From positions 17,795 through 81,794 of the forward strand of contig CAYSSX010000010.1 in the NCBI GenBank assembly GCA_964434115.1: DNA of 64,000 bases, written 5' to 3'. How positions within the stretch are numbered: the stretch's first letter is position 1; the number at the start of each line of letters is the position of its first letter. This document shows, one piece after another, positions 3 to 34,700 of the stretch. This DNA comes from an uncultured bacterium. Lineage in GTDB: Bacteria; Omnitrophota; Omnitrophia; Omnitrophales; Aquincolibacteriaceae. The position numbers were made by a program, and so were the translations under genes. Below the pieces are notes generated by a model. The model searched no databases, was not told the DNA's origin, and worked only from the letters and a program-made list of their open reading frames with translations.

Positions 3-518
3 TCTTTTCAGGAGCGCGCGACCCGGGTGTCGCACCGCAACATGGGTCTCCTTGCGCACAAATGCGGGGGGAAAAAACTGGGGAAAATATGCGCCCTGAT
101 CGCGGGCGATGAAGCCCGCCATGAGCAGGCCTATCAGAATCTCTTCAAGGTTTGTCTGAAAGTCGATCCCAGTGAAGCGCTGGTCGCCATGGCCGATATG
201 CTGCTGTCAAAAGTGGTGATGCCAGCGAGACTCATGGATGACGGCTCTGGCCGTGATTTGTTTTCGGATTATTCGATTGTGGCCCAGAAGCTGGGAATTT
301 ATACGACCCGGGATTATGCGGAAATGCTGCTTTTTCTTGCGGAGACCTGGGAAATTGAGAAATTCAAAAATCTTTCGCCCGAAGCCGCGCAGGCGCAGGA
401 AAAAGTCATGAAGACCGCGGAGAAATACCTCCGCAAATCCGAGAGCCTTTCTGCAGCCATCCAGTCAATTGAAGTCAAACCCTTCTCCTGGGTCACCCCG
501 CAAAAAACCCACGCTTAA
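3..518 (+). CDS. Soluble diiron acyl-ACP desaturase (stearoyl-ACP desaturase family), C-terminal part. The 5' end lies outside the window.
   Basis: The frame is open from nt 3, and the GTG at 27 is only the ORF-caller start. The translation (SFQERATRVSHRN...ICALIAGDEARHEQAY...AMADMLLSKVVMPARLMDDG...DYSIVAQKLGIYT) aligns with the C-terminal half of plant and mycobacterial DesA-type acyl-ACP desaturases (FQERATFISHGNTARLA...IAADEKRHE...). The TAA at 516-518 overlaps the stop of the convergent giant gene. Confidence 0.8.
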   Translation, partial: SFQERATRVSHRNMGLLAHKCGGKKLGKICALIAGDEARHEQAYQNLFKVCLKVDPSEALVAMADMLLSKVVMPARLMDDGSGRDLFSDYSIVAQKLGIYTTRDYAEMLLFLAETWEIEKFKNLSPEAAQAQEKVMKTAEKYLRKSESLSAAIQSIEVKPFSWVTPQKTHA

Positions 519-3500
519 GCAGCCATCTCAATGACCAGGCTCGCCTGATAACGGGCCAGCTCTGTTTTCAGGAAGCCTTCCACCACAGAATAGAATCCGC
601 TTTCCGGGTCTTGATAAACACCGGGCATTTGACCGCCGGATCTCGCCAAGAGGAGTGCCGCAAATAAATCCCGGGACTCCGCGGCAAGAAAGCGAATCAC
701 TTCATCAGAAGCCTGCTCTTTGAGTCTTTCGGCATGCAGGGCAAAATGAACAAGCCTCGGATTCCTATCGCCTGCGGTGCCCCTTTCAAAACCTTTCCCG
801 TAGAGCTGATACGCGCGCTGCAAATCGCCTTCGATCGTAAGAATACCGGCAGCGTCACGAAGCTGCTGCATGCGCGGCGTCATCAAGGCCTCAGGATCAA
901 CACCATAAATAATGACCTTGGTGTTTTTGTCCGACCGGGTTTGGAATCCAAGCGCAAAGACGCTCTCATACAAGGGACTCTCCTGCGAGCGGATTTCTTC
1001 ATAAGAAATAAAAACGCGCGCGGGCAGCTGCGCTGTTTTCTCCAGACTCTCCCGGATTCCTCCGCCCGCACCCAGAAGCCTGAGTTCAGAACGGGAACGA
1101 ACACCCTCAGAGCTGGCCGCGTCTTTTTCCTGTCCCCGGTTTTCTTCGGCCATCCGTTCCGCGATACGGTCAAGGAGAGTGTTCAATTCCGGAACTTTTA
1201 ACGCATAAAGAAAAGACAGCGCGTAATCATCATGAAACCAGCCGAAATGATCCCGGGACCGCTGATCCATGGACTTCGAAGCGTACCGGAAGGATTCCAG
1301 AAGAAAAACATCCAGAAAACTCATGTATCTTTTCTCGCCGAGTGCAAACTGCGGGTTCCGGTTATGGTAGATTTTCAGCGCTTCATACTTCGCATCAAAG
1401 TTTTCAAGCCAATCCTGGGCTTCGGGCTTGATTTGAGCACTCAGGACCTCCGAGATTCTTTTCACATAATCACGGGTCTCTTCAGAGGCTTGGTCTAATC
1501 GGTGCGTCAGCTCCTCGGCAACGCGCTCGACCAAAAGAATCAAAAGCGCCATTCTTTTGTTGCGGAAAGCCTGCACTTCATTGAATTCCTGACCTTGCGG
1601 CATGGCGGGCGGCCCATACTTTTCAAGAGATTCCCAAGGCCGGCTCAAATGCTCCAGCAGAATTTCAGGCGCGATCATCAAACCCGGATCCCAGTTGTTA
1701 AGCTCCACAACACGCCTGCGGTTCACAAAATCAGCGTCCAGCAGAACCGACATCAGCCAATCCGTGAGATCCCCGCTCTTTAGTTTTTTTGCAACAGCAT
1801 CAATCTCAAGCATTTGGTGTTTTTCTTCCGAAGAACTCCTGTTCCAGCTCGAGACGAGCGGGTTTCCCGCATCGCGCGGGGCTTCCCCAGACGTTAAGCC
1901 CTCTTCTTGAACACGCAATTCAGAGCGGGAGTCAGCGCTTATTCTTGCGGATTCAACACGCTCTTTAACCTTGGCAAAAAGCTCTTCCGTACCTTTCTGC
2001 TCCACGCCCCCCCAATAAGTTCGTCCAAAATCCCGCGCCGGAATTCCTTCGGGCGGCTCAGGAGAAAGAGATACGAGCTGGATCCGGCGGTATTTGTCGC
2101 CGGGGAAAGGATAATCGGCCACAATCATGTCATTGCCTTTGTGGATCTTTTCGGTCATGGTTGAACCGTGCACATTCCCTGTGAGTTCGTCGCCGAAGTA
2201 ATACCCAAAACCAAGATCTATCTCCGGGCGCTCAGAGTTTTTCACAGCCTCTTCGGCGTAATGCATCAGGGCTTTGGCCTTGTTCGCATCTGCGGAAAAA
2301 ATATCGATCGAAGATTCACCGCCCACCGACAAGCTGAGATGATTCACAAAATCTTCTCCCAGCCTTTGCGCAAGGAGTTCCTTTAACCGGTCAATGATCG
2401 CGGGGCGGATTTCCGGGGGAAGTTTGGTGATGGTGATGGAGGTCGTTTCCGTGTCCGTGACCTGGCTCCCGCGAAGCTGAATGTAAGGCCCTTGCACGGT
2501 CATGGCCTTGTTTCCAAGATCATCAAAATGAACGCGTCCGGGCTGATAGGCTTCCGGGTTTTCCGCCCAGGGCAATTCATAAATAAGCCCGGGATTCTTG
2601 GATGCATCCTTGATGTACGCCGCACGCAGGGTTTCAATGCCCTCGGCATCAAGGCCAAACTTCTTCTTCCCAAACTCCACAAGCACATCATGAATGGTTT
2701 GTTCCACAACAGGCCGGGAAATACGAAGCTTGGCTTCGTAATCGGAATGTTCCACAGCGTTCCCTTTTTCATCAAACGTCACAAACACGGTTCCCGAGGC
2801 CGAGTAAACAGAGAATGAAATTCCTGAAAGAAGTTCCAGCTTCCCCTGTGCTGTTAAATAATCCTTGAGAGGATTTAAAACCTGGTCCATCACGTCTTTC
2901 ATCGGGTTTCCGGAGTTGATCACAAGCCGGACTTTCTCTTCCAGCATCCAGGCGAGTAACTGGATCATCCCCTCCGCGGCGGGCTTTCTCCGGGCTGCGA
3001 GTGTCTTCTGCATATCAAACATAAAAAATCCGCGTTCACGGATGGCATCCCAATTCGCTGAAATCTGGCGGACAAGTTCTTCCTGGGTTCCAATTTTTCT
3101 TTCCGGCGCGGCGGCTGTTTCAATCTTTGCAAAAACCAGGGCTCCGGTCGAAGAAGGATAGGGGCGGGCACTTGCCGCTGAAACAGAACTGACGCCGTCC
3201 TTCCATTTTCTCTGCATGGCATCACGGCTGTTGGCTAAAAGAAAAACTTCCCTCAGAGGGTCTTCCTCTGCCGATTTCCCAAGGGCCTTCATTTTTTCAC
3301 TGTAAAGCCTCTGAACTTCGGCCCCGAGTTCCTGAGCAGCGGTTCCCTTGCCCTCAAATTTATCGCCGATGATCACAAAAGCAACGGCCTTGCCCTCCCG
3401 GGTGATGCCAACAAGATCATGCGGATACGGATACCGTTTCAAATGAATGGAAAGTTTCCCGCCTTCAATAAAGTATTCACCTGAGGCAAGCTGTTCAAGG

Positions 3501-6500
3501 GGCCTGGGCGTTACTTTGACATATTTGCGGAACGGGTTTTCCAGGGCGTCCCGCTCAAGCTCTTCCTGGGTGTGGGCCTGAAGGTACGGCGAAAGATCAA
3601 TCGTCATGCGGCCGTCCTGCCGGATCACTTCTTTAAAACTCTCACGGTTCTCGTCACGCAGACGGACAAGCTCCTGCTGGGCCAGAGATTCCTTATAAAC
3701 ATAGGAATCAACCTGTCCCTTATCGTCCCGATGCGTTTCAATAAACTGGGGGAAAAGATAGACCTGAAAAATATCCTCAAATTGATGCGCGATGTTTTCA
3801 AAAGGTTCAGCCTGCCCTTCGTGCAAAACGCGCTGTCCAAAAAAGGCCTGCTGAATTTCAGAAGCAATATCCGTCTTCGTCAAATCCGAAGTTCTATAAA
3901 CCTTCACGGCGCCGTTTTCACCCGCGCCTTCTTCAAAAGAAAGCTCTTCGGAAGACGGCGCACGGCTTTTATCCTTCCAATTCACAAACATGCTGTAATT
4001 TCTTTGGTTAAGAGGCTCGCCTTCCCGGTGGTAGAGCCTTTTCGAAGCCCCGTCATAGAGAACAAACCAGTCCACATAATAAAGATTGTGATAGGAGTAA
4101 ATGTCCGCTTCACGGTAACCCAAAGGCCCAAGCTCAGCTTCAAGTTCTTCCCAAGGCTTATTGACTCTTCTTCCCAAGGGATCATTCTCTTCCCCGCCCA
4201 TCGCGCGCTCAAAAAGTTCACCATCCCAGTAACTTTTCCTGTTCACATGATCAAAACGGAAATGTCCGCTTGCGGTTTCATTAAACAAAATTCTCACATC
4301 ATTCTTTTGAAGATCGTAAACCTCCACAACGTGCGGTGAAGCCGGTTCAGCGGCGCGCAGTTCAGAACGCTCAACGTTCTGAACGCCTTGCTGTGCTAAC
4401 GCATTAGCGGTGGTGCGCAGTTCGGATCTTGCCGTGACCATCTTCACCCGCGGGCGCCCTTCAAGGAGAAGGCGTTTATCTTCCTGCATGCGCTCATACA
4501 TTTTGCGTGAGGGGTAAAGCTGAGTGGGACTGGGAATCCATTTCCGGACATCTCCCTTGAGGAGAAGCGCTGTCACCGCGCGCTGCATCAAGGCCTGCCC
4601 TTGATAGGCAGGAAAAACATCCGTCCGCGTGACAAAATAACTTTGATCCTTGCTCTCGCCCTTCCGGAAGGGGCCATCACCCAGTCCCTCAAGAAACGTT
4701 TCAGCGTCCTGTAAAGTCACAAACCCCATGGCGACTGGATGATCCGGGTCATTGCTCAAAATCACAAGGTGACTGTTCTTATTTCCAGCCGGGGAGGCGG
4801 CCGTGTAAGCATTCAAAAGCACCACCCGGAAAGGACCGGGCGCTGCGAGGGGCGCTTTTTCTTGAAGCAGGCGGAGAGTCTCCCTGTCAATGTCTTCCAT
4901 GTCCGCATACGAATGGTCGGCCAGAATCTCGTAATACCCGTAGCGATGCAAAAAAACCTCGTCATGGAGAAACCGGATCAACTCCCCCGGGACGGAGGCA
5001 TCGGGATTTCCCGCAGTACGAAGCTCGGAACGGTTCCGGATGACCTCACCAAGAGCTTCCCAGAGGGCCCCGAATTCCGGATCCTGATTGTCGACGCGAA
5101 GGCTTTCAAGGGTGGGATACTCCGCCCGGGGGTGAAAGACCTGCCCGTCATCTCTTGTAAAAGTCTGCGGCAGGGTGTCCTCAAGCCTTAAAAGCTTCAC
5201 AAGAAATGCAGTCCCGCGGGCTGAGGCCGTCATCGCAAGAAACCGCTCGGAGCTTTGGTTCAGATCATGAAAGTAACTCTTTAAAAATACTTCCGAGAGA
5301 TTTTCTTTACCGAGATTTGTGAGACGCACAATCACATCCGCAAGATCCAGGAACCTGTAGGCCCTCTCTTCCTCAGGGGTCATTTCCGGTGTTTTCATCT
5401 TTGTGGTATTGAGGTCTCTGAAAATAATTTCAAAGCGGCCTCTCAAAACTTCTATCCCCATGTTCGCCGGATGCGGAAAGCCGTGATAAAACCCTGCCTC
5501 ATGATAATTTCGAAGCGCCCGTCCAATCGCCTGATAAAGAACCTCTTCGGAGCCTTCGTCCATTTCACCTCCGCTTCGGGCCTGAACGGGCGCAACGGCC
5601 AGCGTCACGCCAGAACCTTCGCGCTGGCCAACCGAAGTCACGCGCCAATCGTCTCCGGTGAGACCCGCGATCACAAACCCCGCGGAATTTTCCTGGAAAG
5701 TCATCCCCGGAAAAGTGCCCCAGGCCACGGCATAATCCGTTCGGAACTGCAGCGTTTCACGGGCACGCATCATCACGGAGAATTCGGTCCGCGCATCTTT
5801 CTCCCGCATGCCTCCGGCCAGGGCCGTTTCTGCCGGAACAGCGTTCAGAACACCGCCCCGGTCAGGCACAAGGTAGCGGCGGACGCTCCCCTGTCCGGTA
5901 TAAGGCTGCACACCACCCGCCTCCGTCAGAATAGGCTTAACGCCTTTGAGACGGAGCTGCGTGATTTGAACTTTTTCCTGACTACCGCTTTTCGGGGACA
6001 CTTCCACCGGGGTTTCAAGACGCAGGTAAACACTGCGTCCTTCCTCGCTGAAATCCCCGTCTTCGTTTTTAAAATAAATCCTTCCCGAGCTTTCCCCCGC
6101 CATCCGGCGGACGTCCTCACGGCTTCCCGAAAGCAGTTTCATTAATACTTCCCGGTCATTCCGCCCGAGCTTGGCAAAAAAGCCCTGGTCTTTTTCCACA
6201 GTCACAACACCTGCCGGATCTTCCCATTCTTCACCGTCCCCAGCTGTCCTCAACTCCGAGCGCTGCATAAACTCGCGCTCGCGGCTGTTCATCACACGCA
6301 GGACTCTTCCGTAAACCTGTTCAAGCTGTTTTCTGATCTCCCCGATTTCTTCATAGTGCCGGGCTGTAAATTGCTTCGCGGCCGCGGAATTCACGGCCCC
6401 GGAACCAATCCGGTTTGCGGCATTGTGCCCGTAAATCAAAGGCTTCACACCTTCCCCGACCTCCGAATAATCGTTGAGCGGGCGGTTCGTCAAATCCTCC

Positions 6501-8914
6501 AGCACCTTGGTGCTTACCCACAAGTCATCCGCCACATCCCTTAACATCGAGTAAGTGACGCTGCGCGGAGAAAAGAGCAGAATGGTCAAAAGATTATTCA
6601 GGCCATGCTCTGTGTTTTCCCTGAAATAAAATAATTTTCGAGCCGGAGAGCCTGACGGCTCCTTTTCGGATGTGATCGAACTGAGTTTCGTCCTTTTCAC
6701 CCATTCCGGGTCAAAATCATACTTGGCAATGGAGTCCCGTATGTTCGTAAGCGCCTCCCCGATTTTCAAAATCTCGGAAGTGCGGGCTTCCTCTTCCCCT
6801 GTTTCGGGATTCTCTTTCAAAAGACTCCGCTCAAGCCCTGTCGTAAGCGGGTAAACAAATTGTTCCCCAACCTCCGAAGGGCCATAACTTTCAAACCCCG
6901 CTTTTTCAAGCGCCCGGGAAGCCACCGTAAAAGAGACTTGATGGAAATTGGCAAAATAAGGAAGCCCGACAACTTTCCGCTCACGCGCCAGACGAAGCGC
7001 ATGAATTTCAACAGCTGAAATCGGCGGTTCGGATAATTTCTCAGGGGCGCTGCTGTATTCCGCACGGAGCTCGGAACGGATTTCGACTAGATAGGCCTGA
7101 ATCGAAGCAATGTTCTCACGCGCGGGATCAAAAAGAATGTCGGCCGGAATCTCAGACTCTATGGACTTAAGCGTTCTTGAAAGAGTTCCATAATCCCTGT
7201 CACCTGCCAGCTGCCGGACAAAATCAAGACGTTCCTGTATTGTTTGGAGAATCTGAACGTACCCCATCTTTCGGACCCGCTCGATGCTCAGGCGATTTCC
7301 GGCCAGACTATTCACAAGTTCTGAGAAAAGTTCTGAAAAGCGCCCGTAAATTTCATCCTCTTGTTGCAGCGGGTCAACCTCGGCAAAATCGTCACTGCGC
7401 AGTTCCGGTCTCGATGAAAGAAGTAAATCCATTTCCGCCAGCACTTCGGCAGAATCCCCGGCCTTCACCTGTTTCGCGGCAGTTTCAACCCGCGTAATAA
7501 GCCCGCGAAGATTTGCCGATTGTTCGGGGTGTAAAACAGGAAACTCCATGGCCCGGGGCGCCACAGAGGCTCTTGCTGCGGCTTCGGGAAGAGAGAGGTT
7601 CCGGTACCCCTGCCGCATCAGCTGCTGGTAGTAGTCTTGATGCTTCCGGCTCACCCCTGTCATGCGGGGAGAAATCACATAGCAGGCATCGCCGCTCCGC
7701 TGAAGCATGGCCTTGATGCTGTCTTTATGAAACCCTCCGAAAACAAGCGCGGAGGCCGCGGGAGCGTACTTCAAAACTTTTTCGATTTTCTTGTCACGCG
7801 CCTGGGCAAGCGTGTAGAAACGGACCGCCTTGCGGATGTTCTTTTCCCACTGCCGGGAAAGCACCAGGGATTGTCCGGATTCTCGAACCAGAAATTTCGC
7901 AAGATGGCGTGTATCAAAATCTTTCAGGGTTCCCTGAAGTGCTTCGTACTCCGCTGAGGACACTTTCATTTCACTAAGGCGCCGCAAAAGCTCAATATTT
8001 TGGGTATAACTAAAAATCCTTAAGCTGTCTTCGCCCTTTAAGAATCTTCCGGCCGTGTTTTTTTCAAGCTTCTGAATCTCGGTGTAAACTCCCTTGGCAT
8101 CAATCGTCTCAACGCCCGGGGTTTCCGGCTTTTCCTCCTTCAGGGCAAGAAGCATCTTAAGCATCGGATATTCCCCCGCGTCTTCGGACTTGTCACCGGA
8201 ATGACCCAAGTCAAAAACACGCTTCACGTAATCCAGAAGCTCGATCTCACCTTCATCCAATCTCTTTTTGAGTTTCATCCACTCTTTAAGTTCATTCGGG
8301 AAAGTCCTGTCCGCGAGTTTTCTGACCTCAGAACTTAAAACCGCCAGATCGCGCTGAGTTTCCTCTTTTTGAGAAACCGATTGCTGAAAGGCCCGGATGT
8401 TTTCAAAGTGCAGCGCGATGCTGTCCGCGCCGATGAGATCGAAATTTTTTTTGCGGTTGATGTGCGCGTATTCTGCGCCGCCGAGCCTCAGCTTATCCAT
8501 CAAGTAGTAAGAGACTTTTTCACGCAGCGCAGAGTCTTGAATCCCTCCGAAATAATCATCGCTCGGAACAAGCCCTTCGTAACCTTCTTCAAAAACAGTT
8601 TTGATCCCTTGGGTTTCCATCAAAAAATTGAGGATTTTCGCGATATTTTCCTGGGCTTCCAGGGAGTCGTGGGCGTCCTGAAGGTAAAAAATGATTTTGC
8701 CGGAGCGGCCGGGATGAAACTCTTCAACCGTCCCCAGAGTTTCCGGGAGGTTCAAAGCCGTCTTGCCCTGGGACGCGGCGGGCGGCACAAAAATAGCGGA
8801 GTCGCCGGGACCGGGGTCCGCATAAACCCGGGGATCTGAAAACGGCAGACTAAGGCAAAGAAAAAGCGCCGTAAGCCGTATCAACAAGTGAAGTTCAGGG
8901 GATCTTTTTTGCAA
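515..8914 (-). CDS. Giant exported multidomain protein, 2799 aa, paralog of the 6161-aa ORF. It has a signal peptide, a shared N-terminal domain of about 400 aa, and 6 RSELR punctuation motifs.
   Basis: Single uninterrupted ORF with a TTG start at 8914-8912. The N-terminus MQKRSPELHLLIRLTALFLCLSLPFSDPRVYA-DPG reads as a Sec signal peptide. Residues ~60-420 (IFYLQDAHDSLEAQENIA...KTVFEEGYEG...GGAEYAHINRK...FGGFHK) are ~50% identical to the corresponding region of ORF 28725..47210. Exact RSELR motifs sit at nt 7064-7078, 5018-5032, 4415-4429, 4355-4369, 1913-1927 and 1079-1093. Confidence 0.8.
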   Translation of the reverse strand: MQKRSPELHLLIRLTALFLCLSLPFSDPRVYADPGPGDSAIFVPPAASQGKTALNLPETLGTVEEFHPGRSGKIIFYLQDAHDSLEAQENIAKILNFLMETQGIKTVFEEGYEGLVPSDDYFGGIQDSALREKVSYYLMDKLRLGGAEYAHINRKKNFDLIGADSIALHFENIRAFQQSVSQKEETQRDLAVLSSEVRKLADRTFPNELKEWMKLKKRLDEGEIELLDYVKRVFDLGHSGDKSEDAGEYPMLKMLLALKEEKPETPGVETIDAKGVYTEIQKLEKNTAGRFLKGEDSLRIFSYTQNIELLRRLSEMKVSSAEYEALQGTLKDFDTRHLAKFLVRESGQSLVLSRQWEKNIRKAVRFYTLAQARDKKIEKVLKYAPAASALVFGGFHKDSIKAMLQRSGDACYVISPRMTGVSRKHQDYYQQLMRQGYRNLSLPEAAARASVAPRAMEFPVLHPEQSANLRGLITRVETAAKQVKAGDSAEVLAEMDLLLSSRPELRSDDFAEVDPLQQEDEIYGRFSELFSELVNSLAGNRLSIERVRKMGYVQILQTIQERLDFVRQLAGDRDYGTLSRTLKSIESEIPADILFDPARENIASIQAYLVEIRSELRAEYSSAPEKLSEPPISAVEIHALRLARERKVVGLPYFANFHQVSFTVASRALEKAGFESYGPSEVGEQFVYPLTTGLERSLLKENPETGEEEARTSEILKIGEALTNIRDSIAKYDFDPEWVKRTKLSSITSEKEPSGSPARKLFYFRENTEHGLNNLLTILLFSPRSVTYSMLRDVADDLWVSTKVLEDLTNRPLNDYSEVGEGVKPLIYGHNAANRIGSGAVNSAAAKQFTARHYEEIGEIRKQLEQVYGRVLRVMNSREREFMQRSELRTAGDGEEWEDPAGVVTVEKDQGFFAKLGRNDREVLMKLLSGSREDVRRMAGESSGRIYFKNEDGDFSEEGRSVYLRLETPVEVSPKSGSQEKVQITQLRLKGVKPILTEAGGVQPYTGQGSVRRYLVPDRGGVLNAVPAETALAGGMREKDARTEFSVMMRARETLQFRTDYAVAWGTFPGMTFQENSAGFVIAGLTGDDWRVTSVGQREGSGVTLAVAPVQARSGGEMDEGSEEVLYQAIGRALRNYHEAGFYHGFPHPANMGIEVLRGRFEIIFRDLNTTKMKTPEMTPEEERAYRFLDLADVIVRLTNLGKENLSEVFLKSYFHDLNQSSERFLAMTASARGTAFLVKLLRLEDTLPQTFTRDDGQVFHPRAEYPTLESLRVDNQDPEFGALWEALGEVIRNRSELRTAGNPDASVPGELIRFLHDEVFLHRYGYYEILADHSYADMEDIDRETLRLLQEKAPLAAPGPFRVVLLNAYTAASPAGNKNSHLVILSNDPDHPVAMGFVTLQDAETFLEGLGDGPFRKGESKDQSYFVTRTDVFPAYQGQALMQRAVTALLLKGDVRKWIPSPTQLYPSRKMYERMQEDKRLLLEGRPRVKMVTARSELRTTANALAQQGVQNVERSELRAAEPASPHVVEVYDLQKNDVRILFNETASGHFRFDHVNRKSYWDGELFERAMGGEENDPLGRRVNKPWEELEAELGPLGYREADIYSYHNLYYVDWFVLYDGASKRLYHREGEPLNQRNYSMFVNWKDKSRAPSSEELSFEEGAGENGAVKVYRTSDLTKTDIASEIQQAFFGQRVLHEGQAEPFENIAHQFEDIFQVYLFPQFIETHRDDKGQVDSYVYKESLAQQELVRLRDENRESFKEVIRQDGRMTIDLSPYLQAHTQEELERDALENPFRKYVKVTPRPLEQLASGEYFIEGGKLSIHLKRYPYPHDLVGITREGKAVAFVIIGDKFEGKGTAAQELGAEVQRLYSEKMKALGKSAEEDPLREVFLLANSRDAMQRKWKDGVSSVSAASARPYPSSTGALVFAKIETAAAPERKIGTQEELVRQISANWDAIRERGFFMFDMQKTLAARRKPAAEGMIQLLAWMLEEKVRLVINSGNPMKDVMDQVLNPLKDYLTAQGKLELLSGISFSVYSASGTVFVTFDEKGNAVEHSDYEAKLRISRPVVEQTIHDVLVEFGKKKFGLDAEGIETLRAAYIKDASKNPGLIYELPWAENPEAYQPGRVHFDDLGNKAMTVQGPYIQLRGSQVTDTETTSITITKLPPEIRPAIIDRLKELLAQRLGEDFVNHLSLSVGGESSIDIFSADANKAKALMHYAEEAVKNSERPEIDLGFGYYFGDELTGNVHGSTMTEKIHKGNDMIVADYPFPGDKYRRIQLVSLSPEPPEGIPARDFGRTYWGGVEQKGTEELFAKVKERVESARISADSRSELRVQEEGLTSGEAPRDAGNPLVSSWNRSSSEEKHQMLEIDAVAKKLKSGDLTDWLMSVLLDADFVNRRRVVELNNWDPGLMIAPEILLEHLSRPWESLEKYGPPAMPQGQEFNEVQAFRNKRMALLILLVERVAEELTHRLDQASEETRDYVKRISEVLSAQIKPEAQDWLENFDAKYEALKIYHNRNPQFALGEKRYMSFLDVFLLESFRYASKSMDQRSRDHFGWFHDDYALSFLYALKVPELNTLLDRIAERMAEENRGQEKDAASSEGVRSRSELRLLGAGGGIRESLEKTAQLPARVFISYEEIRSQESPLYESVFALGFQTRSDKNTKVIIYGVDPEALMTPRMQQLRDAAGILTIEGDLQRAYQLYGKGFERGTAGDRNPRLVHFALHAERLKEQASDEVIRFLAAESRDLFAALLLARSGGQMPGVYQDPESGFYSVVEGFLKTELARYQASLVIEMAA

Positions 8915-9101: not shown

Positions 9102-9371
9102 ATGACTGATGACCCTTTTGGAAACGAAGAGCTTCAATTTCCGCTCGACTGCCAATTCAGAATCATTGCCGAGAACCGCGAAGGCATGCATTTTGTCATC
9201 GAGACAATCTTAATCGAACAGGGCGTCACGGCACCGCTTGAGCCGCAGAATCTGTCCCACGGGGGTAAATATCAATCCTACCTGGTGATGGTCCGCGTCG
9301 AATCCAGGGATCACATGGGCCGGATTGATGCCGCGCTTCGGAACATCACCGGCGTCAAGATGGTTCTTTGA
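9102..9371 (+). CDS. YbeD/UPF0250 (DUF493) family small protein
   Basis: 89 aa. The sequence ...FPLDCQFRIIAEN...YQSYLVMVRVESRDHMGRIDAALRNITGVKMVL is typical of DUF493. Its stop overlaps the next start (ATGA at 9368-9371). Confidence 0.55.
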   Translation: MTDDPFGNEELQFPLDCQFRIIAENREGMHFVIETILIEQGVTAPLEPQNLSHGGKYQSYLVMVRVESRDHMGRIDAALRNITGVKMVL

Positions 9372-10096
9372 TGGATGTAATACCCGCCTCTTTTTTCCGG
9401 ATCCGCGAGCGCCGCTTGGAACCGGAACTCATGGATGACCTTTCGCTCGACGCGGAACTTCACCGCCAGGCGCTCAGGGGCCTTGAACGCATCAACGCCT
9501 TAAGCTTGACTGCGGAGACTTTTTGGAAACCGATAAAAGAATTTTATTTATCCGAAAAAAAACCCCTGCGGATCCTGGACATAGCCTCCGGCGCCGGCGA
9601 TATTCTGACCCGGCTTGCGTTGAAAACCCGCAAAGAAAACCTTCCCTTTGTTTTTGAAGGCTGTGATTTTAACTCCCAGGCCGTCGATTATGCAAACCAC
9701 CGCGCGAAAATCCGGAACCTCCCTGTTTCATATTTTCTCCACGATGCCTTAAGGGATCCCATGCCGGAAAGATTTGACATCGTAATCAACAGTCTTTTTC
9801 TTCACCACTTGTCCGAAGACGGGCTTGGGCAGTTTTTTAAAACACTTCATGCCTCACGGGCCCGGCTCCTGCTCATCTGTGATTTGAAACGCTCACGCGC
9901 GGGCCTGTCGCTTGCTTATTTAGGCACCCGTCTTTTGTCACGCTCCCGGATCGTTCACTGGGACGGCCCTCAATCCGTGCGTGCCGCCTTTACAACCGCT
10001 GAGATTCTTCAGTTTGTGGACTCCGCCGGACTTCCCAAGCCCCGGCTTCAGACCGTTTGGCCCCAGCGCTACTTACTGGCCTGGCACCGTTCATGA
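9368..10096 (+). CDS. Class I SAM-dependent methyltransferase
   Basis: Motif I ILDIASGAGDILTRLA, post-I acidic residue and motif II/III spacing. Translationally coupled to flanking genes. Confidence 0.75.
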   Translation: MMDVIPASFFRIRERRLEPELMDDLSLDAELHRQALRGLERINALSLTAETFWKPIKEFYLSEKKPLRILDIASGAGDILTRLALKTRKENLPFVFEGCDFNSQAVDYANHRAKIRNLPVSYFLHDALRDPMPERFDIVINSLFLHHLSEDGLGQFFKTLHASRARLLLICDLKRSRAGLSLAYLGTRLLSRSRIVHWDGPQSVRAAFTTAEILQFVDSAGLPKPRLQTVWPQRYLLAWHRS

Positions 10097-11274
10097 GTTT
10101 CTCATCCACCCTGCCAAAACCCGCCGAAAACACCCCGCCCAAAGATCTTGCTCAAAAACTTTGGGATTTTATTATTATTGGCGCGGGTCCCGCGGGTTCC
10201 ATGGCGGCTTATGAACTTTCCAAATTCAACCGCAGCATTCTTATGGTGGATCAAGCGGAATTTCCGAGGCTCAAGGTTTGCGGCGGATGTCTCAGCCGCC
10301 GGGCCCTTCAAATCCTCAAACACGCGGGACTCGGGGATCTTTCGGGAAGGCTTGGCGCAAAAAAACTCCGCGAGGTCCGTCTTTTTTCAGAAGGAAAATC
10401 CGTATCCCTTACAATTCCAGAAGGCGCGGGCCTTTCCCGTGAACGTCTGGATTCGGCCCTCGCAGCGGAAGCCATCAAAAGAGGCGCTGTTTTCTTGGAC
10501 AAAACCAAAGGCCGTTTTGACCGGGTTGAGGAAGGTTCAGCTTATGTGCATCTCACCCGCCCCGAAGGCGGAATCGAAGTCCGTGCTCAAATGGTTTTGC
10601 TCTGCGGCGGGCTTTCCGGAACAGCGTCAGGCCTGAAGGTTTCTGAGCGGGCTTTGCCTGCCAAAGATTCGCTCATCGGAATTTCAGCGGTCCTGCCTTC
10701 TTCCGCCCTGAGCGTGGAAGAAGGCGTTATTACCATGCTCTGCGCGGACGAAGGCTATGCCGGGATTACAAAAAGAGAAGACGATCAGCTGGACATTGCC
10801 GCAGCCATACAGCCTTCGTTTTTAAAGCGTTCGGGAACTCCGGGCCGGTGTCTTGAGCAGGTCTTTTCGCAAAACGGTTTCGCGGTTCCTGAAGGGCTTC
10901 ACACCGCGGCCTGGCACGGGACACAGCCCCTCACGCATTCCCAAAAAAAAGTTTCGGCGCCCCGCTGTTTTATTCTGGGAGATGCTTCGGGTTATGTCGA
11001 ACCTTTCACGGGTGAGGGCATGACCTGGGCGCTTCTTCAAGCCAGGGATTTTGCGGCACTGCTTGAAAGCCGCGGGTTTGAATGGGATGAATCCCTCATC
11101 AAAACATGGCAAAAGCGGCATCAACAGAAAATGGGCCTGAGGATGCGGGCCTGCCGCGTCATAACTTTGCTTCTTCGCTTTGCGTGGGCCAGAACAGCGG
11201 CCCTGAACACCCTGCGTGCGGCGCCCTGGCTCGCGGCCCCGCTAATCCGTTTTATTCATGGAGATTCTGAATGA
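10090..11274 (+). CDS. FAD-dependent oxidoreductase (geranylgeranyl-reductase/UbiH-like flavoprotein)
   Basis: Dinucleotide-binding motif IIIGAGPAGSMAAYEL near the N-terminus. ATG at 10090 overlaps the upstream stop (ATGA). The ORF track gives a longer alternative start at 10057. Confidence 0.7.
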   Translation, partial: FMSFSSTLPKPAENTPPKDLAQKLWDFIIIGAGPAGSMAAYELSKFNRSILMVDQAEFPRLKVCGGCLSRRALQILKHAGLGDLSGRLGAKKLREVRLFSEGKSVSLTIPEGAGLSRERLDSALAAEAIKRGAVFLDKTKGRFDRVEEGSAYVHLTRPEGGIEVRAQMVLLCGGLSGTASGLKVSERALPAKDSLIGISAVLPSSALSVEEGVITMLCADEGYAGITKREDDQLDIAAAIQPSFLKRSGTPGRCLEQVFSQNGFAVPEGLHTAAWHGTQPLTHSQKKVSAPRCFILGDASGYVEPFTGEGMTWALLQARDFAALLESRGFEWDESLIKTWQKRHQQKMGLRMRACRVITLLLRFAWARTAALNTLRAAPWLAAPLIRFIHGDSE

Positions 11275-12389
11275 AAAAAAAATCCCTTCCTAAAAAAAAC
11301 ACCTGCGTCCTTTCCGGCCTTGGGCTTTCCGTCCCGCGCCACGCCATGACGCAGAAAGAAACCGCGCTCACAGCCATCGGCCTGTCTTCCCGGGGCGATA
11401 AAGAAGTAAGCTTTCTCAAAATGCTTTACCATAAAACCAGAATTCAAAAGCGCGGCTCGGTTCTTTTTGAACGGCCCCAAGGATCTTCCAAAGCAGAACA
11501 AAACTTCTTCAAGCCCCGGAAGCATGACCTGGACCTCGGTCCGGGAACCCAAGAGCGCATGGCGGTTTTTGAAAAGAAGGCCTTTGAGCTGGCTTTACCC
11601 GCATGCCGAGCCGCGCTTCGCGCTGCCGGTTTAAAAGGTACGGCCATGACCCACCTTGTACTTGTGTCCTGCACGGGCTTTTCTTCCCCGGGCCTTGACC
11701 TTGCTTTGATCCGGAAGCTCCCGCTGAGCCTGGATATTGAGCGGGCGCAAATCGGCTTCATGGGCTGTCACGGGGCGGTTAACGGAATGCGGGTCGCGCA
11801 CGCTTTGGCCGAACAAAACCCAAAAAACAAAGTTTTGCTGATCGCGGTTGAGATTGCCTCCATTCATTACGCCTACGGACGGGGCACGGACTCTCTCGTG
11901 GCGAATTCCCTTTTTGCGGATGGCGCCGCGGCCTGCGTTCTCGCTTCCCGGAAACCCTCTTCCAAAGATTGGACGTTGAAAGCCACGGGGTCTTTTTTCT
12001 TTCCCGGGTCAGAAGATGCTATGTCCTGGAAAATCGGTAACCATGGTTTTGAAATGCGCTTGTCCGCGCAGGTCCCCGGGTTGATTGAATCAGGTTTGAA
12101 AGACCCCGTGCGCAAGTGGCTGAAAAAGGCGGGGCTGGATTTAAAAGATATCAAAACGTGGGCGATTCATCCGGGCGGCCCCAAAGTCCTGGATGCCGCG
12201 GAAAGAGGGCTGTCTTTACCTGAAAACTCTCTCAGCACGTCCCGGCTCATCCTCAGGGATCATGGGAATATGTCTTCTCCCACACTGCTTTTTATTATTG
12301 ACCGCCTGAAGCGCTCCGGAGCCCCGCTGCCGTGCGCAGCGCTGGCTTTCGGGCCCGGGCTTGTCACGGAAGCGGCCCTGTTTGTTTAG
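11271..12389 (+). CDS. Type III polyketide synthase (chalcone/stilbene synthase family)
   Basis: The Cys-His-Asn triad context is conserved: MGCHGAVNGMRVA (active Cys), WAIHPGGPKVLD (His), DHGNMSSPTLLF (Asn). Length 372 aa. Start overlaps the upstream stop. Confidence 0.8.
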   Translation: MKKKSLPKKNTCVLSGLGLSVPRHAMTQKETALTAIGLSSRGDKEVSFLKMLYHKTRIQKRGSVLFERPQGSSKAEQNFFKPRKHDLDLGPGTQERMAVFEKKAFELALPACRAALRAAGLKGTAMTHLVLVSCTGFSSPGLDLALIRKLPLSLDIERAQIGFMGCHGAVNGMRVAHALAEQNPKNKVLLIAVEIASIHYAYGRGTDSLVANSLFADGAAACVLASRKPSSKDWTLKATGSFFFPGSEDAMSWKIGNHGFEMRLSAQVPGLIESGLKDPVRKWLKKAGLDLKDIKTWAIHPGGPKVLDAAERGLSLPENSLSTSRLILRDHGNMSSPTLLFIIDRLKRSGAPLPCAALAFGPGLVTEAALFV

Positions 12390-27547: not shown

Positions 27548-28174
27548 TTACAAATGCATTCTTATCACACCGCAAACTTTTCCGACCAGACGGAAGGCCT
27601 GATCCGCCTTCACAACAATCGGTTTGTACACCGGATTCTCGGCCTTGAGTTCAATATGCGCGGCTCGTTTGTAATATCTTTTGACCGTGGCTTCGCCGTC
27701 GACGAGGCACACCGCAATCTGGCCGTTTTCGCAGTCTTTCTGGGGCCTCACGATCACCAAATCGCGGTCCAGAATGTGCGCATTCACCATGCTGTCCCCT
27801 TTGACGCGCAGCAAAAAACTATCCCTCACCGCACCCGACTCCCGGCTCACCACAAAATGCCCCTCGATATTTTCTTCCGCCAGGATCGGAGTTCCGGCCG
27901 CGACCTGTCCGACAATCGGCAGCTTGACCAAACCGTCGGGCTGAACGTCGAACCCATCATCATCGAGAATCTCAATATCCCGGGCTTTGGGAGAGCGGCG
28001 GATGTACCCCTTCTTTTGAAGGACATTCAAATAATCCTGCACGGTTCCTACGGCCCGGAATCCGAAATGGGTCTGAATCTCCTGCAGCGAAGGAAAATTC
28101 CGGCTTCGCGCGCGGGTTTTCAGGAGGTATTCCAGGATTTTCCTTTGATTGTCTGTTAAGGGTTTCTTTTCCAT
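27548..28174 (-). CDS. lexA: LexA repressor (S24 peptidase)
   Basis: N-terminal winged-helix LTDNQRKILEYL plus the S24 Ser/Lys dyad region VKGDSMVNAHILDRDLVIVRP...ATVKRY. The likely start is MEKKPL at 28174 with a GGGAGG RBS. The track gives an alternative start at 28192. Confidence 0.85.
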   Translation of the reverse strand: MEKKPLTDNQRKILEYLLKTRARSRNFPSLQEIQTHFGFRAVGTVQDYLNVLQKKGYIRRSPKARDIEILDDDGFDVQPDGLVKLPIVGQVAAGTPILAEENIEGHFVVSRESGAVRDSFLLRVKGDSMVNAHILDRDLVIVRPQKDCENGQIAVCLVDGEATVKRYYKRAAHIELKAENPVYKPIVVKADQAFRLVGKVCGVIRMHL

Positions 28175-28188
28175 ACGCCTCCCATATA

Positions 28189-28204
28189 CCATAAATATTT
28201 ATGG
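28189..28204. promoter_or_regulatory. Perfect 16-bp palindrome CCATAAATATTTATGG, candidate LexA operator (SOS box)
   Basis: An exact inverted repeat immediately 5' of the lexA RBS and start codon. It is AT-rich in a ~55% GC genome. Confidence 0.45.
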
Positions 28205-28724: not shown

Positions 28725-31700
28725 ATGAAAAAAAATCTGCCTCTTAAAATCATGGCCGCTTTCACGGCGATTTCCCTGATGACAGATCCGGGAAACGTCT
28801 ATGCCGCCACCGGTCTGCCCAAAGCAGCTTCTTCCCCAGCAAAAGCTCCCGAAATTTCAGAAACTGCCGGCCAAATGGAAGATTTTTTTCAGGGAACTTC
28901 CGCAAAAACTATTCTCTACATTCAGGACGCCCATGACTCGCTTGAGGCGCAGAAAAACATCGCGTCCCTGATTTCTCAATTCACCGAAAAGGACGGGGTC
29001 AAAACTGTTTTTGAAGAAGGGTATGAAGGCCCGGTTCCGACAGACCGCTTTTTCGGGTTCATACCCGCCTCTGAAATCCGGGAAAAGGTTTCCGGTTTTC
29101 TTTTGGACAAGCTCCGGATCGGGGGCGCGGAATATGCCCATATCAATCGGAAGACAGACTTCAAGCTCATCGGCGCGGACAATCTGGACAAATACAAAAA
29201 AAACATTGAGGCCTTCCGCGCGGCAGCCAAAGAAAATCAAGTCATTGCCCGCGATCTTGACGCCATCCTTACGGAAATCGAGTCCCTGGCGAGTCAGCGC
29301 TTTCCCAAGTCCTTCCGCGAATGGGTGAAACTACGCGACAAATACGACTGCGCGGCGGTTGATCTTCTAGACTACTTAAAGCGCACAAGAAAAATCCTTG
29401 AGACTTCTCCCTCCGGCCTTGCCGGCGTTCCGGAAAAAATTCCGGCCATCGAACTTTTACTTAGGGCTTCGGCTTCGGATCAGAATGAAACCCTGACCAC
29501 TCAAGCCAAAACCATTACCCCTCAAGCCCTGTTTCAGGATCTCGCAGCTTTGGATACCCTGACCGCAGAACGGTTCCTGACCGCGGAAGGAGACCGCCGG
29601 ATTTTTCACTACCGCGAAGCTTTGCATCTTCTGAAGCGCCTTAATCAAATGGAGGTCACGCCGGCCGAGTACGCGGCCTCTCAAAAAATGATTACCGGGC
29701 TCAACACCCGGGAACTGGCCGACTTTATCGCACGCGAATCCAAAAAGTCCCTGGTTCTTTCCAAGGCATGGGAAAACAGCATTCAAAAAGCCTCAGCGTT
29801 TTATGAATTGGCAAAGCAGCGTGACGAAGCCATTGAGAAAACACTTTCGGACTTCCTTCAGCAGCCGGATGAAACCACCGCCGTCCTCGTCTACGGCGGA
29901 TTTCACAAGGCCAACATTCTGTCGATTTTTCAAAAACTGGGCGTTTCCTACGGCATCATCACCCCGAAAATTTCAGGCCCGGACCCCGTTCATGAACGGT
30001 ATTACAAGGAACTCATGGCCGTGGGCCTGCATGACTATGAAAAAACCGTTCTCCCCGCCGCGGGAACTGCCGCACGGGCCACACGACCGCCATCTCTGTT
30101 TGTGGAAACTTTTGGCGAGGCCTCAATCCAGTCGCTTTACCGGACGGTTGAACAAAACCCGGATACGCCGCTTGAACTTCTTGAACGCGAAGTCCCAAGG
30201 TCAGAACTTCGCTCGGAAGCCAGCCCATCGGCAAATCTGATTGCCGCGGATTCAGCGCTTGCGGCCTTCGGCCGAGGTTTAGGCGTCAACTTTAATGTTC
30301 CCGAATCAGCGCTGCGAAACGGTTACTGGCAATACGAAATCAATCCGCTGCCAGCGGAAAGAAAAGTCATTCACAAGCGCATGATTCCGGCCTATAAAAA
30401 CGGCAGTGAACAGCTGCCCACCCATTTGCGTTTAATTTTCAAAGACCGCCAGCCGCTTCTTATTGTCTCTGACGGTATTGCCTGGGGCCAAATCCCTGAA
30501 GACATTCGATCGGCCAATGAAAAGGCCTTCATTGCCCGGTTCGCAGGCGTTTACAAACACCTTTCTCCGGGCAAGGCTCAGAAAAAAGGACGCGAAGAAT
30601 TCTTAAGATCCATTTCAAAAAAACAAATTGCTCTTGGGTTTTCCCTTGTACCCGAAGAAGCCCAGCATCCTTTCTTACTGGCCCAGAGATGGTTCGAAGC
30701 ACAAACCCAATCAGTCGGTACGTACTCTACACAGTTCTTTGATGTGACCAAACCCGAAGACCTGCAGTCCCCCATCCTCACCTTTGAGGGTGTCTACAAA
30801 CCCTACACGGTGAGCAGTCATCTCTTCAGGTCAGGGATCCGTCCTGGGAAAAATTCCCTGGTTTATGTTTTAGGATCAGGGTCGGGCGCGGATGCTCTCC
30901 GCGCCGCGGAAAAGGCCAAAGGCCAGATCCGGATTGTGGCCTCCGACATTGATTCTTTGGCCGCTGAAAACACCCGCTACAACGCTGCACGAAGCCCTTA
31001 CAGTGCAGTCATTGAAGTCCACCGGGCAGATCTTTTTAATATCCCCGGACGGCCGGAAGGTGAACGGGCTGATCATATTTACTTCAACCCTCCCTTGAGC
31101 ATGAATGCAGCGGACGGAAACCTTGCCACGGCAGATGAAGGCATGCGTGTCCTCACCCGCTTCCTGACCGAAGCACCGGATCATCTGAAAGAGACGGGCA
31201 CACTTGAACTCACTTATACCGAGACGCCTGAATTTCTTCATAAAGTTTATTCCCTCGGCTGGGAGCCAGCACTGATTGAGGGGCTTCATCTTTCACGTAA
31301 ACATTTTCCGAACAACCGTTCAGACTATGTCCGCTTCACACTTCGCCGCATGTCCACCAGCCGGACAGCGGAGCTGCAAGAGGTTGTGTCGGATTGGGCA
31401 AAACTGATTCCCCTGCAGAAAAAAACCCGGGGAGGGCCCAATCCCTTTACCGCGTCAGACCTGGCACTGCTGAAAGCCTTGAAAGGAAAGTATTCGGCAT
31501 CCCAGGATTTCACGGGCAGGCTTATTTCAAAAACGCTCTATGCGCTTGAAAAAATTTCACAGGGTCTTACACCGCTTCGTCCCGAAGACGACAAACGCTT
31601 CAACCTGAATTATCCGCAGACGCTTCCCGTCCCCGGCCAGGTTTACCAGCATTCCCAGCGCCAGGAGCTCACGGTCCAAGTCACGCGCCTTGAAAGCAAC

Positions 31701-34700
31701 GGCTCTTTTAATATTCAGTCTTTTCAAGACGGACGGTCTCAAGGCCCTGAACAAATAGTTCCCGAAGAACAAACAGAGGCTTTCCTTCGGGAATTTGCTC
31801 CGGTCCGCAGCGAACTGCGCATGGTGTCTTCTTTTGAAATGGAGCTGGCCTTCGGAGATCTTGCCAAGACTCCTACTTTAAGCGGCGGAAGAAACGATGA
31901 CTTCCTTTACGAGAACGGGAAGAAAGTTGCTGTCATTATGCCTTGGTCGAAATTTATTTACCGGGCGCTGGATTCGGACGGGCGCGAAATTCCCGACCGT
32001 ATTTACAAAATCACTCATTACGCGTCCGAAAACGAAACGCTTTTTGAGGAAGCCAAAAAGATTTTCGCTCTACAGACTCCTGGCGTTTCCAAATTGCAGC
32101 GCATCGGGACGCTGAAAAGCGGCGGCATGTGGGTGGAACTCAAAGGCATTGCTTCAGCACGTTCCATGGACCGCGAAATTTTCGGCAGAACGCCCCGGCT
32201 TTTCAATGTCCTGATCCGGGCCGGAGAGCTGTTAAAAGGTATTCATGAACGCGGGATCGTTCACGGCGATATCAAGCCGGAAAACCTTTTGATCAATAAC
32301 GCCCAGGAACTCGAATGGATTGATTTCGGCGGCAATTTCACACGCGGTTATGTGGCTCTGGATGAGGAAAAGAACCCGATCGAAGACAAAACTTCCCCGG
32401 ACGTGGATGTTTACAGTTTCATCATGATCATTGCGCACCTTTTGGATCATCAGATTCAGGCACAGTCTCCGGAAATCGGCAAAACTCTGCGCCGCATGCG
32501 GGACGAATACCTTCACCTCATTCTCAAGGACTGGACCTTTCAGCGTTTTGAAGAACTGCTTCAGATCGGGGTATGGACAGAGAAGCTGACCCCGCTTCCC
32601 CGTAAAAAATGGCCGAAAGACATGTCGGAAATCACTGAAAAATTAAAACACGATCTTCAGGAACTGTCGGAAAACCATCCTGAATTGTTCACAACCGCGG
32701 TTGAAGAAGAAAAGAAGCTGATTCACGCAAGCGTTCATTCGTCCGAAACCAGGGACACCGCACAGAAACTCAAGCAGCTTCTCGACACTCTTCAGCGTGA
32801 CGGCGCGCTTCACCCCGGGAAAATTGCGGTCACGGATTTGAGCCGGGGCGCGGTCGCTCCCGCGTTCAAAGAACAGGTCGAGGCCTTTTCTCATCAAAAA
32901 GAAATCAGCATTGTCATGGAAGGGGCTTATCTTGACGATTGCTGCCGGCAGGCCTCCTGGACGCTTCTCGAGTATGCCCGGAACAATCCCGAAAAAAATC
33001 TGAACCTCCACTTCCCCGTCGACTTGATCGCGTACCCTCATGACTTTCTCGCTGAATCCGATTCAAAAGAAAAAATCAGCGCGCTGCTCTTTAACCTTGA
33101 GGCAGACGCGGCGGGCCTTTCTTACGAAGTCTTCGTGGACGGTGTAAAAACTGAAAGCACTGATGCGCCAGCCGGCCCCCAGGAGCCGGTTCGCGTGAAA
33201 CTTTACCTGTGGTCTGATTCACTGCTCATGGCCCAGACCGTGACTGAATCCCTCAGGCCCGGTTCCGGGGACCAGAACACAGATTCCCGGTCAGAGTTGA
33301 GGCAGCCCGGGGAAACAAATCCCCTTATCCAAAATCTTTTTTTTGAAAAAGAAATCACGCCTGAAACGATTGCCGCGGCGGAAGCCCTGATTCCAAAACC
33401 CATTCTCGACAGACTGATCCGGGAAGGCTATGAGCTTCCTAAGGGATTCAAGACCCAAGGGGCTCCGGGAGCCGCCCGAAAATTGATTTTGGATATCCAA
33501 AAAGGCGCCGGATCTCTGCAAATTATTTTAAAGGACAGGAAAAACCCCAGTTATGAATTTTTGAAAATTCCGCTCAGCGTCAAAGGGAAACAGCTCGGCC
33601 TCGGCTTCGGCCATTTGAATCAATTCAGTGAGGCAAAAACCGCTTATCCTGGGTACGACGACCCTGTCTTTGCCTGGTGGTTCCTGAAAAACCTCGTTCC
33701 TTTTGCAAAGCAAACAGGCTTTGACGATTTCGACCTTATTCAAGGCCCGCTTTCTGATGATGATTTAACAAAAGCCGGTTTTAAACTTCGCGACGAAGAG
33801 TCTGGCGTTCCTTTATGGATTTATGACCTAAAGCTGCGGGAATCCCGGTCTGAACTAAGGAACGACGGCGAGCGGTTGGAAATCCCGCTGGGAGAAACCC
33901 GGAAAGTGACCGTCGCGGCAGGCGAAAAAATTCTTGTGTCGGGTTTTGATCCGAAACGAAGAACCTCGGCACTGATTGAAATAAGATCCGTTGAAAAATC
34001 CCCGGGAAGAGAAATTGGGGGCCGTTTCAAAGCCCCGCGCCGTGAAGCGGAAATCCGCATCTCTGCACCGCCCGAAATTGTCATTTTGAGGGACACGGAA
34101 TGGCTGGAGTTTCTTTCGGACCACGAAAACCCGGACGCGTCCGTCAACATTTTTGGGCATTGGAACCGTCCGGCACTTTGGGCACTCCGGGACAAACTGA
34201 TCGCGAGGAGCTTTGGCAGGCGCTTTATGAGCTGGCGCGCGTATCTTCCGGAAGAGAGAAAAGTCTACCTCATGGACCTCAATACCCGGGCCCGGGTCGA
34301 GATTGAAATAACGAATACGGATATCGAAAAAAATGAGGCGGACCTGATCCTTCGTCCCGTCGTGAGCGCAGAATTTGGAACAGGGTATTTCGTGCAGGCC
34401 TTTTCAAATTCGCAGCAGCCTGTCTCTGCTATCCGTTCTGAATTGAGCCGAGCTAAAATCAATGAGACAGAGCTCAGTGAAGTCAAAACGCACGCGCAGC
34501 GGGTGGCTGCTGATTTCGGTTTTCCATCCGAGTTCACTAGCTTTGCTGTCCTGGATAAAGTCCACGCGCCAGAAATCGATCCGGATTTGACGGCCTACCT
34601 TGTAAAACTCACAGTCCTTCTTCCCTCTTCCACGGAAACAGAAAAAGAATTTTTAATCGGTCTTGATCAAAACCGCCGGCTTGCGGCGGGTGCCTGGCTG

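Follow-up and report, generated by a model that had tools for sequence, protein, structure and literature searches.

Large clostridial toxins, MARTX toxins and viral polyproteins carry a built-in protease that frees unrelated enzyme modules at short linker motifs. Sequence-specific endopeptidases are known in the Tiki fold, namely RRSP and TIKI (RRSP paper). For the giant proteins of the phylum Omnitrophota, a 2023 preprint (West-Roberts et al.) states that information on cleavage points is lacking. The DNA analysed here, called the window in its entire length of 64,000 nucleotides, comes from an uncultured Omnitrophota bacterium (GenBank assembly GCA_964434115.1, contig CAYSSX010000010.1, positions 17,795 to 81,794 of the forward strand). 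It encodes two giant proteins, polyproteins A and B (Table 1), which begin with the same domain, the head, and are divided by repeats of the five-residue motif RSExR. As modelled and aligned, the head forms a new family, so far uncatalogued, within the Tiki/TraB/GumN/ChaN/erythromycin-esterase hydrolase superfamily, and circumstantial evidence gives about an even chance that it is an endopeptidase cutting the RSExR junctions.

The paralogy of the two heads is real and far above chance, since a BLASTP comparison of the first 520 amino acids (aa) of A and B gives 188 identities over 449 residues (42%), 62% positives and an E-value of 1e-114. A preliminary description of the window, made from its letters alone, had reported this close alignment, and all the peptide strings that it quoted are found in the translations of A and B. 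Its coordinates were roughly right: the interval 28890..29990 that it gave for B lies inside the unit 28725..30197 equivalent to the head of A, which stops exactly where the first RSELR begins, and in A the similarity begins at the start codon (8914) and extends to about aa 445. In both proteins a short hydrophobic N-terminal segment closed by VYA stands ahead of the head, and no other transmembrane-like segment is present in A or B. The head, a domain of about 440 residues common to both giant genes, is predicted to be an exported enzyme.

An AlphaFold2 model of residues 45-491 of B, built on an alignment of 42 close homologues, is confident, with a mean predicted local distance difference test (pLDDT) score of 89.2 and a predicted template modelling (pTM) score of 0.85. 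The modelled segment has an alpha/beta core formed by its residues 1-110 and 300-390, which is split by an all-helical insertion of about 200 residues. The central parallel beta-sheet of the core is flanked by helices and is superposable on solved Tiki members. Immediately before the first RSELR come a short loop, which is disordered, and two helices placed with confidence. Structure comparison with this model gives as best match an unrelated uroporphyrin-III C-methyltransferase (1v9a, score 9.2), and the further matches include a TraB family protein (8bqs_DQ, 9.1), RRSP (5w6l, 8.6), Bcr135 (2rad, 8.5), HopBA1 (5t09, 8.1), ChaN (2g5g, 8.0), EreC (6xcq, 7.9), 2qgm (7.4) and PMT (2ebf, 6.4). All six from TraB to EreC are among the top ten matches, and several of the matched structures are known Tiki-superfamily structures (RRSP paper).

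A Foldseek search, which the preliminary description had proposed as a check, places the erythromycin esterases EreC and Bcr135 at ranks 1-4 (E-values 0.015-0.04, probability up to 0.92). The sole weak Pfam match of the B head is Cofac_haem_bdg (PF04187, 'Haem-binding uptake, Tiki superfamily, ChaN'; E 0.1), at 13.1 bits against a gathering threshold of 27.7 and over positions 143-211 only of the 213 in the profile. The same family is the most frequent one when 82 heads are scanned singly (10 of 82, best E 1.6e-5); DUF5694 is matched by two of the 82, and neither TraB (PF01963) nor Erythro_esteras is matched by any head in the Pfam scan. Because the PF04187 match is sub-threshold and partial, the head is not filed as a member of the ChaN family. 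The C-terminal half of the head aligns by hhalign with a TraB/GumN alignment of nine sequences (E. coli YbaP and plasmid homologues) at a P-value of 0.0043, with R366 on R-N and GGFH on GALH; an hhalign comparison of the whole head profile with YbaP alone was uninformative. The preliminary description had proposed a TIKI/TraB-like signature, and the Foldseek ranking, the sub-threshold ChaN match and the hhalign result for the C-terminal half all support the fold, but the first motif is not the GTxH that it had in mind.

Candidate active-site residues were counted in 265 family members, comprising the window, 80 genome loci and 183 database proteins, and are given in B numbering. Asp-68 and His-70 are each conserved in 264 of 264 sequences, Glu-97 in 261 and Glu-98 in 264 of 265, Glu-136 in 264, His-139 in 260 and Arg-142 in 261 of 264, Tyr-360 in 246 of 246, Arg-366 in 244 of 244 and His-394 in 239 of 240, at an overall identity among family members of only about 40-45%. 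The invariant His residues of DAH and GGFH and the acid cluster named in the preliminary description are thereby confirmed, and the loss of the His/Glu positions in homologues, which it had named as a possible refutation, is not seen. In the secondary structure of the AlphaFold2 model, His-70 comes after the first core strand, with QDAH directly following strand 18-24, Glu-97 and Glu-98 close the next strand (50-53), 27-28 residues past His-70, and Arg-366 lies in a long helix before the penultimate strand, after which His-394 follows. The experimentally essential residues of RRSP are E3900, H3902, E3930, R4001 and H4030, with spacings of 2, 28 and 29, and the spacing from H85 to E113 of Bcr135 is 28 (RRSP paper); the corresponding spacings in the head are 2 from Asp to His, 27-28 from His to Glu and 28 from Arg to His. 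The Gly of the first GxxH is replaced by Gln in the head, and D-x-H resembles E3900-x-H3902 of RRSP. The head thus appears to carry an intact, hydrolase-type D-x-H ... EE ... R ... GxxH set, the residues being placed by secondary structure. RRSP is metal-independent, and metal ions in the Ere enzymes serve structure formation and not catalysis (RRSP paper), so that the term 'metalloprotease-like' of the preliminary description is not implied for the head.

The head family is large. Among 1.84 billion representative proteins, a profile search detects 8,967 members, 4,886 of them at E <= 1e-30; the head is N-terminal in the 150 matches listed, and the proteins reach 6,726 aa. The 42 close homologues, all unnamed, derive without exception from Candidatus Omnitrophota or metagenomes. 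With one genome scanned per species, 161 head loci are found, often several in the same genome. The locus analyses use 80 of these, which are mostly metagenome-assembled genomes (MAGs) of Omnitrophota, the remainder being 'uncultured bacterium' MAGs and one labelled Planctomycetales. Among 172 members whose N-terminal sequence is long enough, 162 have a hydrophobic signal-like segment ahead of the head. Neither Pfam nor NCBIfam contains the family, the literature on Omnitrophota with Tiki, TraB or polyprotein yielded no description of it, and a keyword search of both preprints on Omnitrophota giant proteins finds no mention of Tiki or TraB. Minimal forms exist: P0018 (696 aa) consists of head and tail only, and P0009 (431 aa; locus L001, 10001..11296), on a 461-kb contig, is head-only and ends in LLVSEA. 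A conserved partner gene beside the polyproteins was sought within 10 kb on either side and none was found, the sole widespread cluster being an ORF (open reading frame) antisense to the head. This long ORF (8369..8839, plus strand, in the window, with equivalents in 45 loci) is an artefact and not a gene; it appears conserved because the head coding sequence is strongly conserved.

Six-frame translation of the window finds RSELR seven times in A, 13 times in B and once elsewhere, in a frame antisense to B. In the 80 loci, the ORFs with a head contain 344 RSExR motifs in 217,547 aa, or 1.58 per 1000 aa, compared with 0.108 in all other segments. In 141 independent representative proteins the motif occurs 666 times, as against 13 after shuffling (about 50-fold), and 132 of them have at least one copy. 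Motif-rich segments that lack a head are in every case frameshift continuations of a head ORF or are N-terminally cut at the edge of a locus. L004 (11254.., 13232..) and L061 (8128..) lie on low-coverage MAG contigs, and their polyprotein ORFs fall into overlapping frames, each with RSExR; these breaks are probably assembly frameshifts and not real gene boundaries. The motif has a sharp definition, with R, S, E and R invariant and one of L, V, M, A or I at x. Its flanks are unconserved, with bulky hydrophobic residues depleted to 0.20-0.24 from 0.33. In the database proteins P0171, P0099 and P0167, RAExR or RTExR replaces RSExR, as with the 11 copies of RAExR in a protein of 6,726 aa. Since some members use these variants, the motif is better written R-[S/A/T]-E-x-R. 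All synonymous codons occur at the 20 RSELR sites of the window, which places selection at the level of the peptide and not of the DNA; a DNA-level repeat or recombination site is ruled out on the same ground. A literature search for 'RSELR' returned only papers on the varSelRF software.

The first motif lies at the edge of the head, at a median of 117 aa after GGFH in the 141 representative proteins. In A, RPELR (Ser to Pro) is found where B and most homologues have the first junction, and this degenerate junction may leave the A head attached to the 106 residues that follow. When the proteins are cut at the motif, BLAST alignments of the resulting modules to the modules of other polyproteins have both their ends only a few residues from the motif, which thus marks true domain boundaries. 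The same modules occur at differing positions in unrelated polyproteins, which indicates shuffling. Comparison with P0177, P0124, L012 and L005 shows that junctions are gained and lost between orthologues: modules 1 and 2 of A (aa 618-1294) correspond to one module of P0177, a single 809-aa module of A (aa 1521-2329) corresponds to two separate modules elsewhere, and modules 7 and 8 of B (aa 2987-3441) are fused in L005. The residue at x is shared by two sites of one protein with a probability of 0.44, compared with an expected 0.21 and a permutation maximum of 0.233. It is Leu at 20 of 20 sites in the window and at 30 of 30 in one MAG, and mostly Ala in another; homogeneity at x was noted in L017, L030, L033, L046, L048 and L057 and in L006, L032 and L035. 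This homogenisation per protein and per genome suggests co-evolution with a lineage-encoded reader of lineage-specific specificity.

Almost every complete protein with a head closes with a tail of about 160 aa, which is conserved though divergent. A hidden Markov model (HMM) of the tail matches 129 of 172 C-termini, including those of L006, L008, L012, L015, L016, L019 and others, and Ala is the last residue in 95%; a hydrophobic stretch leads up to a final AA or SA, as in LVIEMAA, LVIAYSA and similar endings. Conserved residues of catalytic type (His, Cys, Ser or Asp) are absent from the tail, Pfam and NCBIfam give no match to it, and database searches gave a single homologue; its AlphaFold2 model, from a 4-sequence alignment, has a pLDDT of 48.7, too low for a fold search. 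The polyproteins have no universal modules besides head and tail. The tail is as universal a partner of the motif as the head, which is the only universal module with catalytic-type conservation. Among the cargo modules of B, Pfam recognizes at least three S-adenosylmethionine (SAM)-methyltransferase domains, a protein-kinase-like segment and a KTI12-like P-loop domain, whereas the cargo of A has no Pfam match. Enzymes of the types found in B normally need cytoplasmic cofactors, yet B bears a signal peptide.

These observations lead to a plausible hypothesis on the processing of the polyproteins. Their architecture is a Sec-type signal peptide, the head, cargo modules each bounded by R[S/A/T]ExR, and the conserved Ala-ended tail. 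The head would be a cis-encoded endopeptidase that recognises exposed R-S-E-x-R junctions and, during or after export, would cut the polyprotein into head, cargo enzymes and tail. It would thus be an analogue of the viral polyprotein protease or of the MARTX cysteine protease domain that uses a Tiki-fold His/Glu hydrolase of the RRSP/TIKI kind. The head is the leading but unproven candidate for the protease, because it heads thousands of multi-module proteins whose modules are separated by RSExR; we infer that it has hydrolase activity, that it is specific for peptide bonds and that RSExR is its substrate. A broader proposal is that Omnitrophota possess a large undescribed class of Sec-exported 'cargo-train' polyproteins, in which a Tiki-fold protease head and an Ala-ended tail bracket freely shuffled enzyme modules (methyltransferases, kinases, peptidases), the head cutting at R[S/A/T]ExR with a specificity that co-evolves in each lineage. 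Such a class would parallel, in bacteria, the processing of viral polyproteins and might deliver sets of effectors to prey or host cells; this proposal is tentative and carries somewhat less than even probability.

Several observations weigh against an RSExR-cutting head. RSExR is missing from nine of the 141 head proteins: RAExR or RTExR clearly takes its place in three (3-11 copies), stray variants occur once or twice in two, and no variant is present in four. The sample used for co-occurrence was chosen by the head, so the converse is weakly tested by it, and the head-only protein P0009 has no RSExR within 10 kb on either side. Mutual information between head columns and the class of x was uninformative, as variable columns and phylogeny dominate. 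As to the fold, the Foldseek E-values are only 0.015-0.04 and the TM-scores are low, no Pfam or NCBIfam model reaches its curated threshold for the heads, the N-terminal half of the head does not align to TraB/GumN in hhalign, and the first motif is QDAH and not GxxH. Sequence searches of the PDB with a single head, and with profiles built from 18 and from 82 heads, gave no relevant match; the matches obtained were dismissed as BAG-domain coiled-coil noise arising from the helical insert. The Tiki superfamily also holds esterases (RRSP paper) and a non-enzymatic haem binder.

The last point bears on a somewhat unlikely alternative, in which the head is an active Tiki-fold hydrolase acting on another substrate, such as an ester or lactone, a component of the prey or host envelope, or a signalling peptide as proposed for PrgY. 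The head would then be a constant first enzyme, and the junctions would be cut by another protease, either encoded in the genome or supplied by the periplasm or host. Such a role would agree with the best Foldseek matches being erythromycin esterases of the same helical-lid architecture, with the presence of esterases besides proteases in the superfamily and with the existence of P0009. The homogeneity of x per genome rather than per protein would also be explained equally well by a single trans-acting reader. However, no other protease-like module is universal in the head-bearing proteins, no conserved gene adjoins the head loci, and the motif co-occurs with the head in more than 90% of members and first appears right at the C-terminal edge of the head.

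Cleavage itself may be absent, RSExR being an inter-domain linker, a docking motif or an export-pausing motif in polyproteins that work intact as multi-enzyme assemblies, with the head as one conserved enzyme or anchoring domain. The published giant-protein work leaves cleavage open, citing the missing information on cleavage points, and the loss of some junctions between orthologues has done no apparent harm. A motif of five residues, four of them fixed, whose flanks are unconserved and poor in hydrophobic residues is more typical of a protease site than of a structural linker. Since it also lies at boundaries between unrelated modules that shuffle among proteins, and a hydrolase-type domain with an invariant predicted active site is always present in cis, we regard intact polyproteins as improbable. 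Lower still is the probability that the head is a non-catalytic Tiki-fold module, either a ChaN-like binder of haem or another cofactor or a secretion or chaperone domain, that serves export or anchoring of the polyprotein. Its consistent position after a signal peptide would suit such a function, the only recurrent Pfam match of the heads is the haem-binding ChaN family, and PMT illustrates that Tiki-fold domains can be without catalytic residues and activity (RRSP paper). Yet the ChaN matches are sub-threshold and confined to the C-terminal motif region, and the set of two His, acidic residues and Arg that marks active members is essentially invariant in the 265 sequences despite their low pairwise identity, making a head without catalysis very improbable.

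Table 1. Features of polyproteins A and B in the window.
Feature	Positions	Strand	Remarks
Polyprotein A	515..8914	-	2799 aa; signal peptide, head, 7 RSELR junctions, tail
A signal-peptide-like segment	8816..8914	-	aa 1-33; hydrophobic segment, ends ...LFLCLSLPFSDPRVYA
A head with C-terminal extension	7412..8815	-	aa 34-501; Tiki-superfamily-like hydrolase fold (predicted); 42% identity to B head
A QDAHDS	8663..8680	-	candidate catalytic Asp/His after strand 1
A FEEGYEG	8573..8593	-	candidate catalytic Glu pair, end of strand 2
A GGAEYAHINR	8453..8482	-	family-specific invariant motif (E, H, R)
A RDKKIEK	7778..7798	-	invariant Arg in helix before last core strand
A GGFHK	7724..7738	-	second GxxH motif
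A RPELR	7397..7411	-	aa 502-506; degenerate first junction
A RSELR	7064..7078	-	aa 613; first canonical junction
A tail module	518..1078	-	conserved, C-terminal; ends ...LVIEMAA
Polyprotein B	28725..47210	+	6161 aa; signal peptide, head, 13 RSELR junctions, tail
B signal-peptide-like segment	28725..28805	+	aa 1-27; hydrophobic segment, ends ...LMTDPGNVYA
B head with C-terminal extension	28806..30197	+	aa 28-491; modelled part 28857-30197
B QDAHDS	28923..28940	+	D68, H70
B FEEGYEG	29010..29030	+	E97, E98
B GGAEYAHINR	29121..29150	+	E136, H139, R142
B RDEAIEK	29820..29840	+	R366
B GGFHK	29895..29909	+	H394
B RSELR	30198..30212	+	aa 492-496; first junction, directly after head
B cargo domains	within 28725..38549	+	aa 713-829, 1170-1202, 2132-2224, 2761-2801, 3148-3211
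B tail module	46707..47207	+	conserved, C-terminal; ends ...LVIAYSA
Junction peptide			candidate substrate, EVPRSELRSEAS

Beside A, at 9368..12389 (plus strand), three successive genes in divergent orientation encode a methyltransferase, a flavin adenine dinucleotide (FAD)-dependent oxidoreductase and a type III polyketide synthase, and may form a small biosynthetic cluster. A gene for a LexA-like repressor with a LexA DNA-binding domain and Peptidase_S24 (27548..28192, minus strand) lies about 530 bp upstream of B, also divergent.

To the question of how the very long Omnitrophota proteins are cleaved, the present analysis offers a five-residue junction motif and a cis-encoded hydrolase-type domain in about 9,000 representative proteins. 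If the head is the junction protease, the real functional units of such ORFs could be separated by computation, the sequence-specific proteases of the Tiki superfamily would number three kinds, and a short, portable pair of protease and site would become available for engineering polyproteins. Even without a protease role, a large family missing from Pfam and NCBIfam now has a fold assignment, as predicted by modelling.

Among the known systems, RRSP (the DUF5 effector of MARTX) and vertebrate TIKI1/2 are Tiki-superfamily proteases and have no detectable sequence similarity to the head, which differs from them in its helical insertion of about 200 residues and in the additional invariant motifs GGAEYAHINR and Y360. 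A single cut in a foreign target is made by RRSP (Ras/Rap1) and by TIKI (Wnt; RRSP paper), whereas cuts at many repeated sites of its own polyprotein are proposed for the head. EreA/B/C and Bcr135/136 resemble the head in their length of about 400 aa and in a split alpha/beta core with a helical lid, with a His-Glu catalytic pair in Ere. However, the heads give no HMM match to the erythromycin esterases, which are stand-alone cytoplasmic esterases acting on macrolide lactones and not signal-peptide-bearing N-terminal domains of polyproteins. Compared with TraB/PrgY/GumN (E. coli YbaP; Tetrahymena TraB, 8bqs), the head has QDAH in place of the N-terminal GxxH and a much larger insertion. ChaN is a binding protein, whereas the head keeps a full set of predicted catalytic residues.

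By functional analogy, the polyproteins share with MARTX toxins, clostridial toxins and viral polyproteins a long product, unrelated enzyme modules and constant ends around variable cargo. A Pfam scan of the whole proteins A and B finds no C80 cysteine protease domain, no RTX or glycine-rich repeats and no type I secretion system (T1SS) signal. In contrast to MARTX, the candidate protease has another fold and lies at the extreme N-terminus, the RSExR motif is new and the signal peptide is of the Sec type. The Omnitrophota giant proteins of West-Roberts et al. (2023 preprint) and of a 2026 complete-genome preprint come from the same phylum and share very long multi-enzyme ORFs and a suspected post-translational cleavage; they differ in exceeding about 30,000 aa, in having many transmembrane helices and in the C39 or S8 peptidase domains proposed for them. 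The fold and the principle of autoprocessing multi-module proteins are known already. What is new is the family of heads, the combination of this family with a repeated R[S/A/T]ExR junction, and the head-cargo-tail architecture at this scale.

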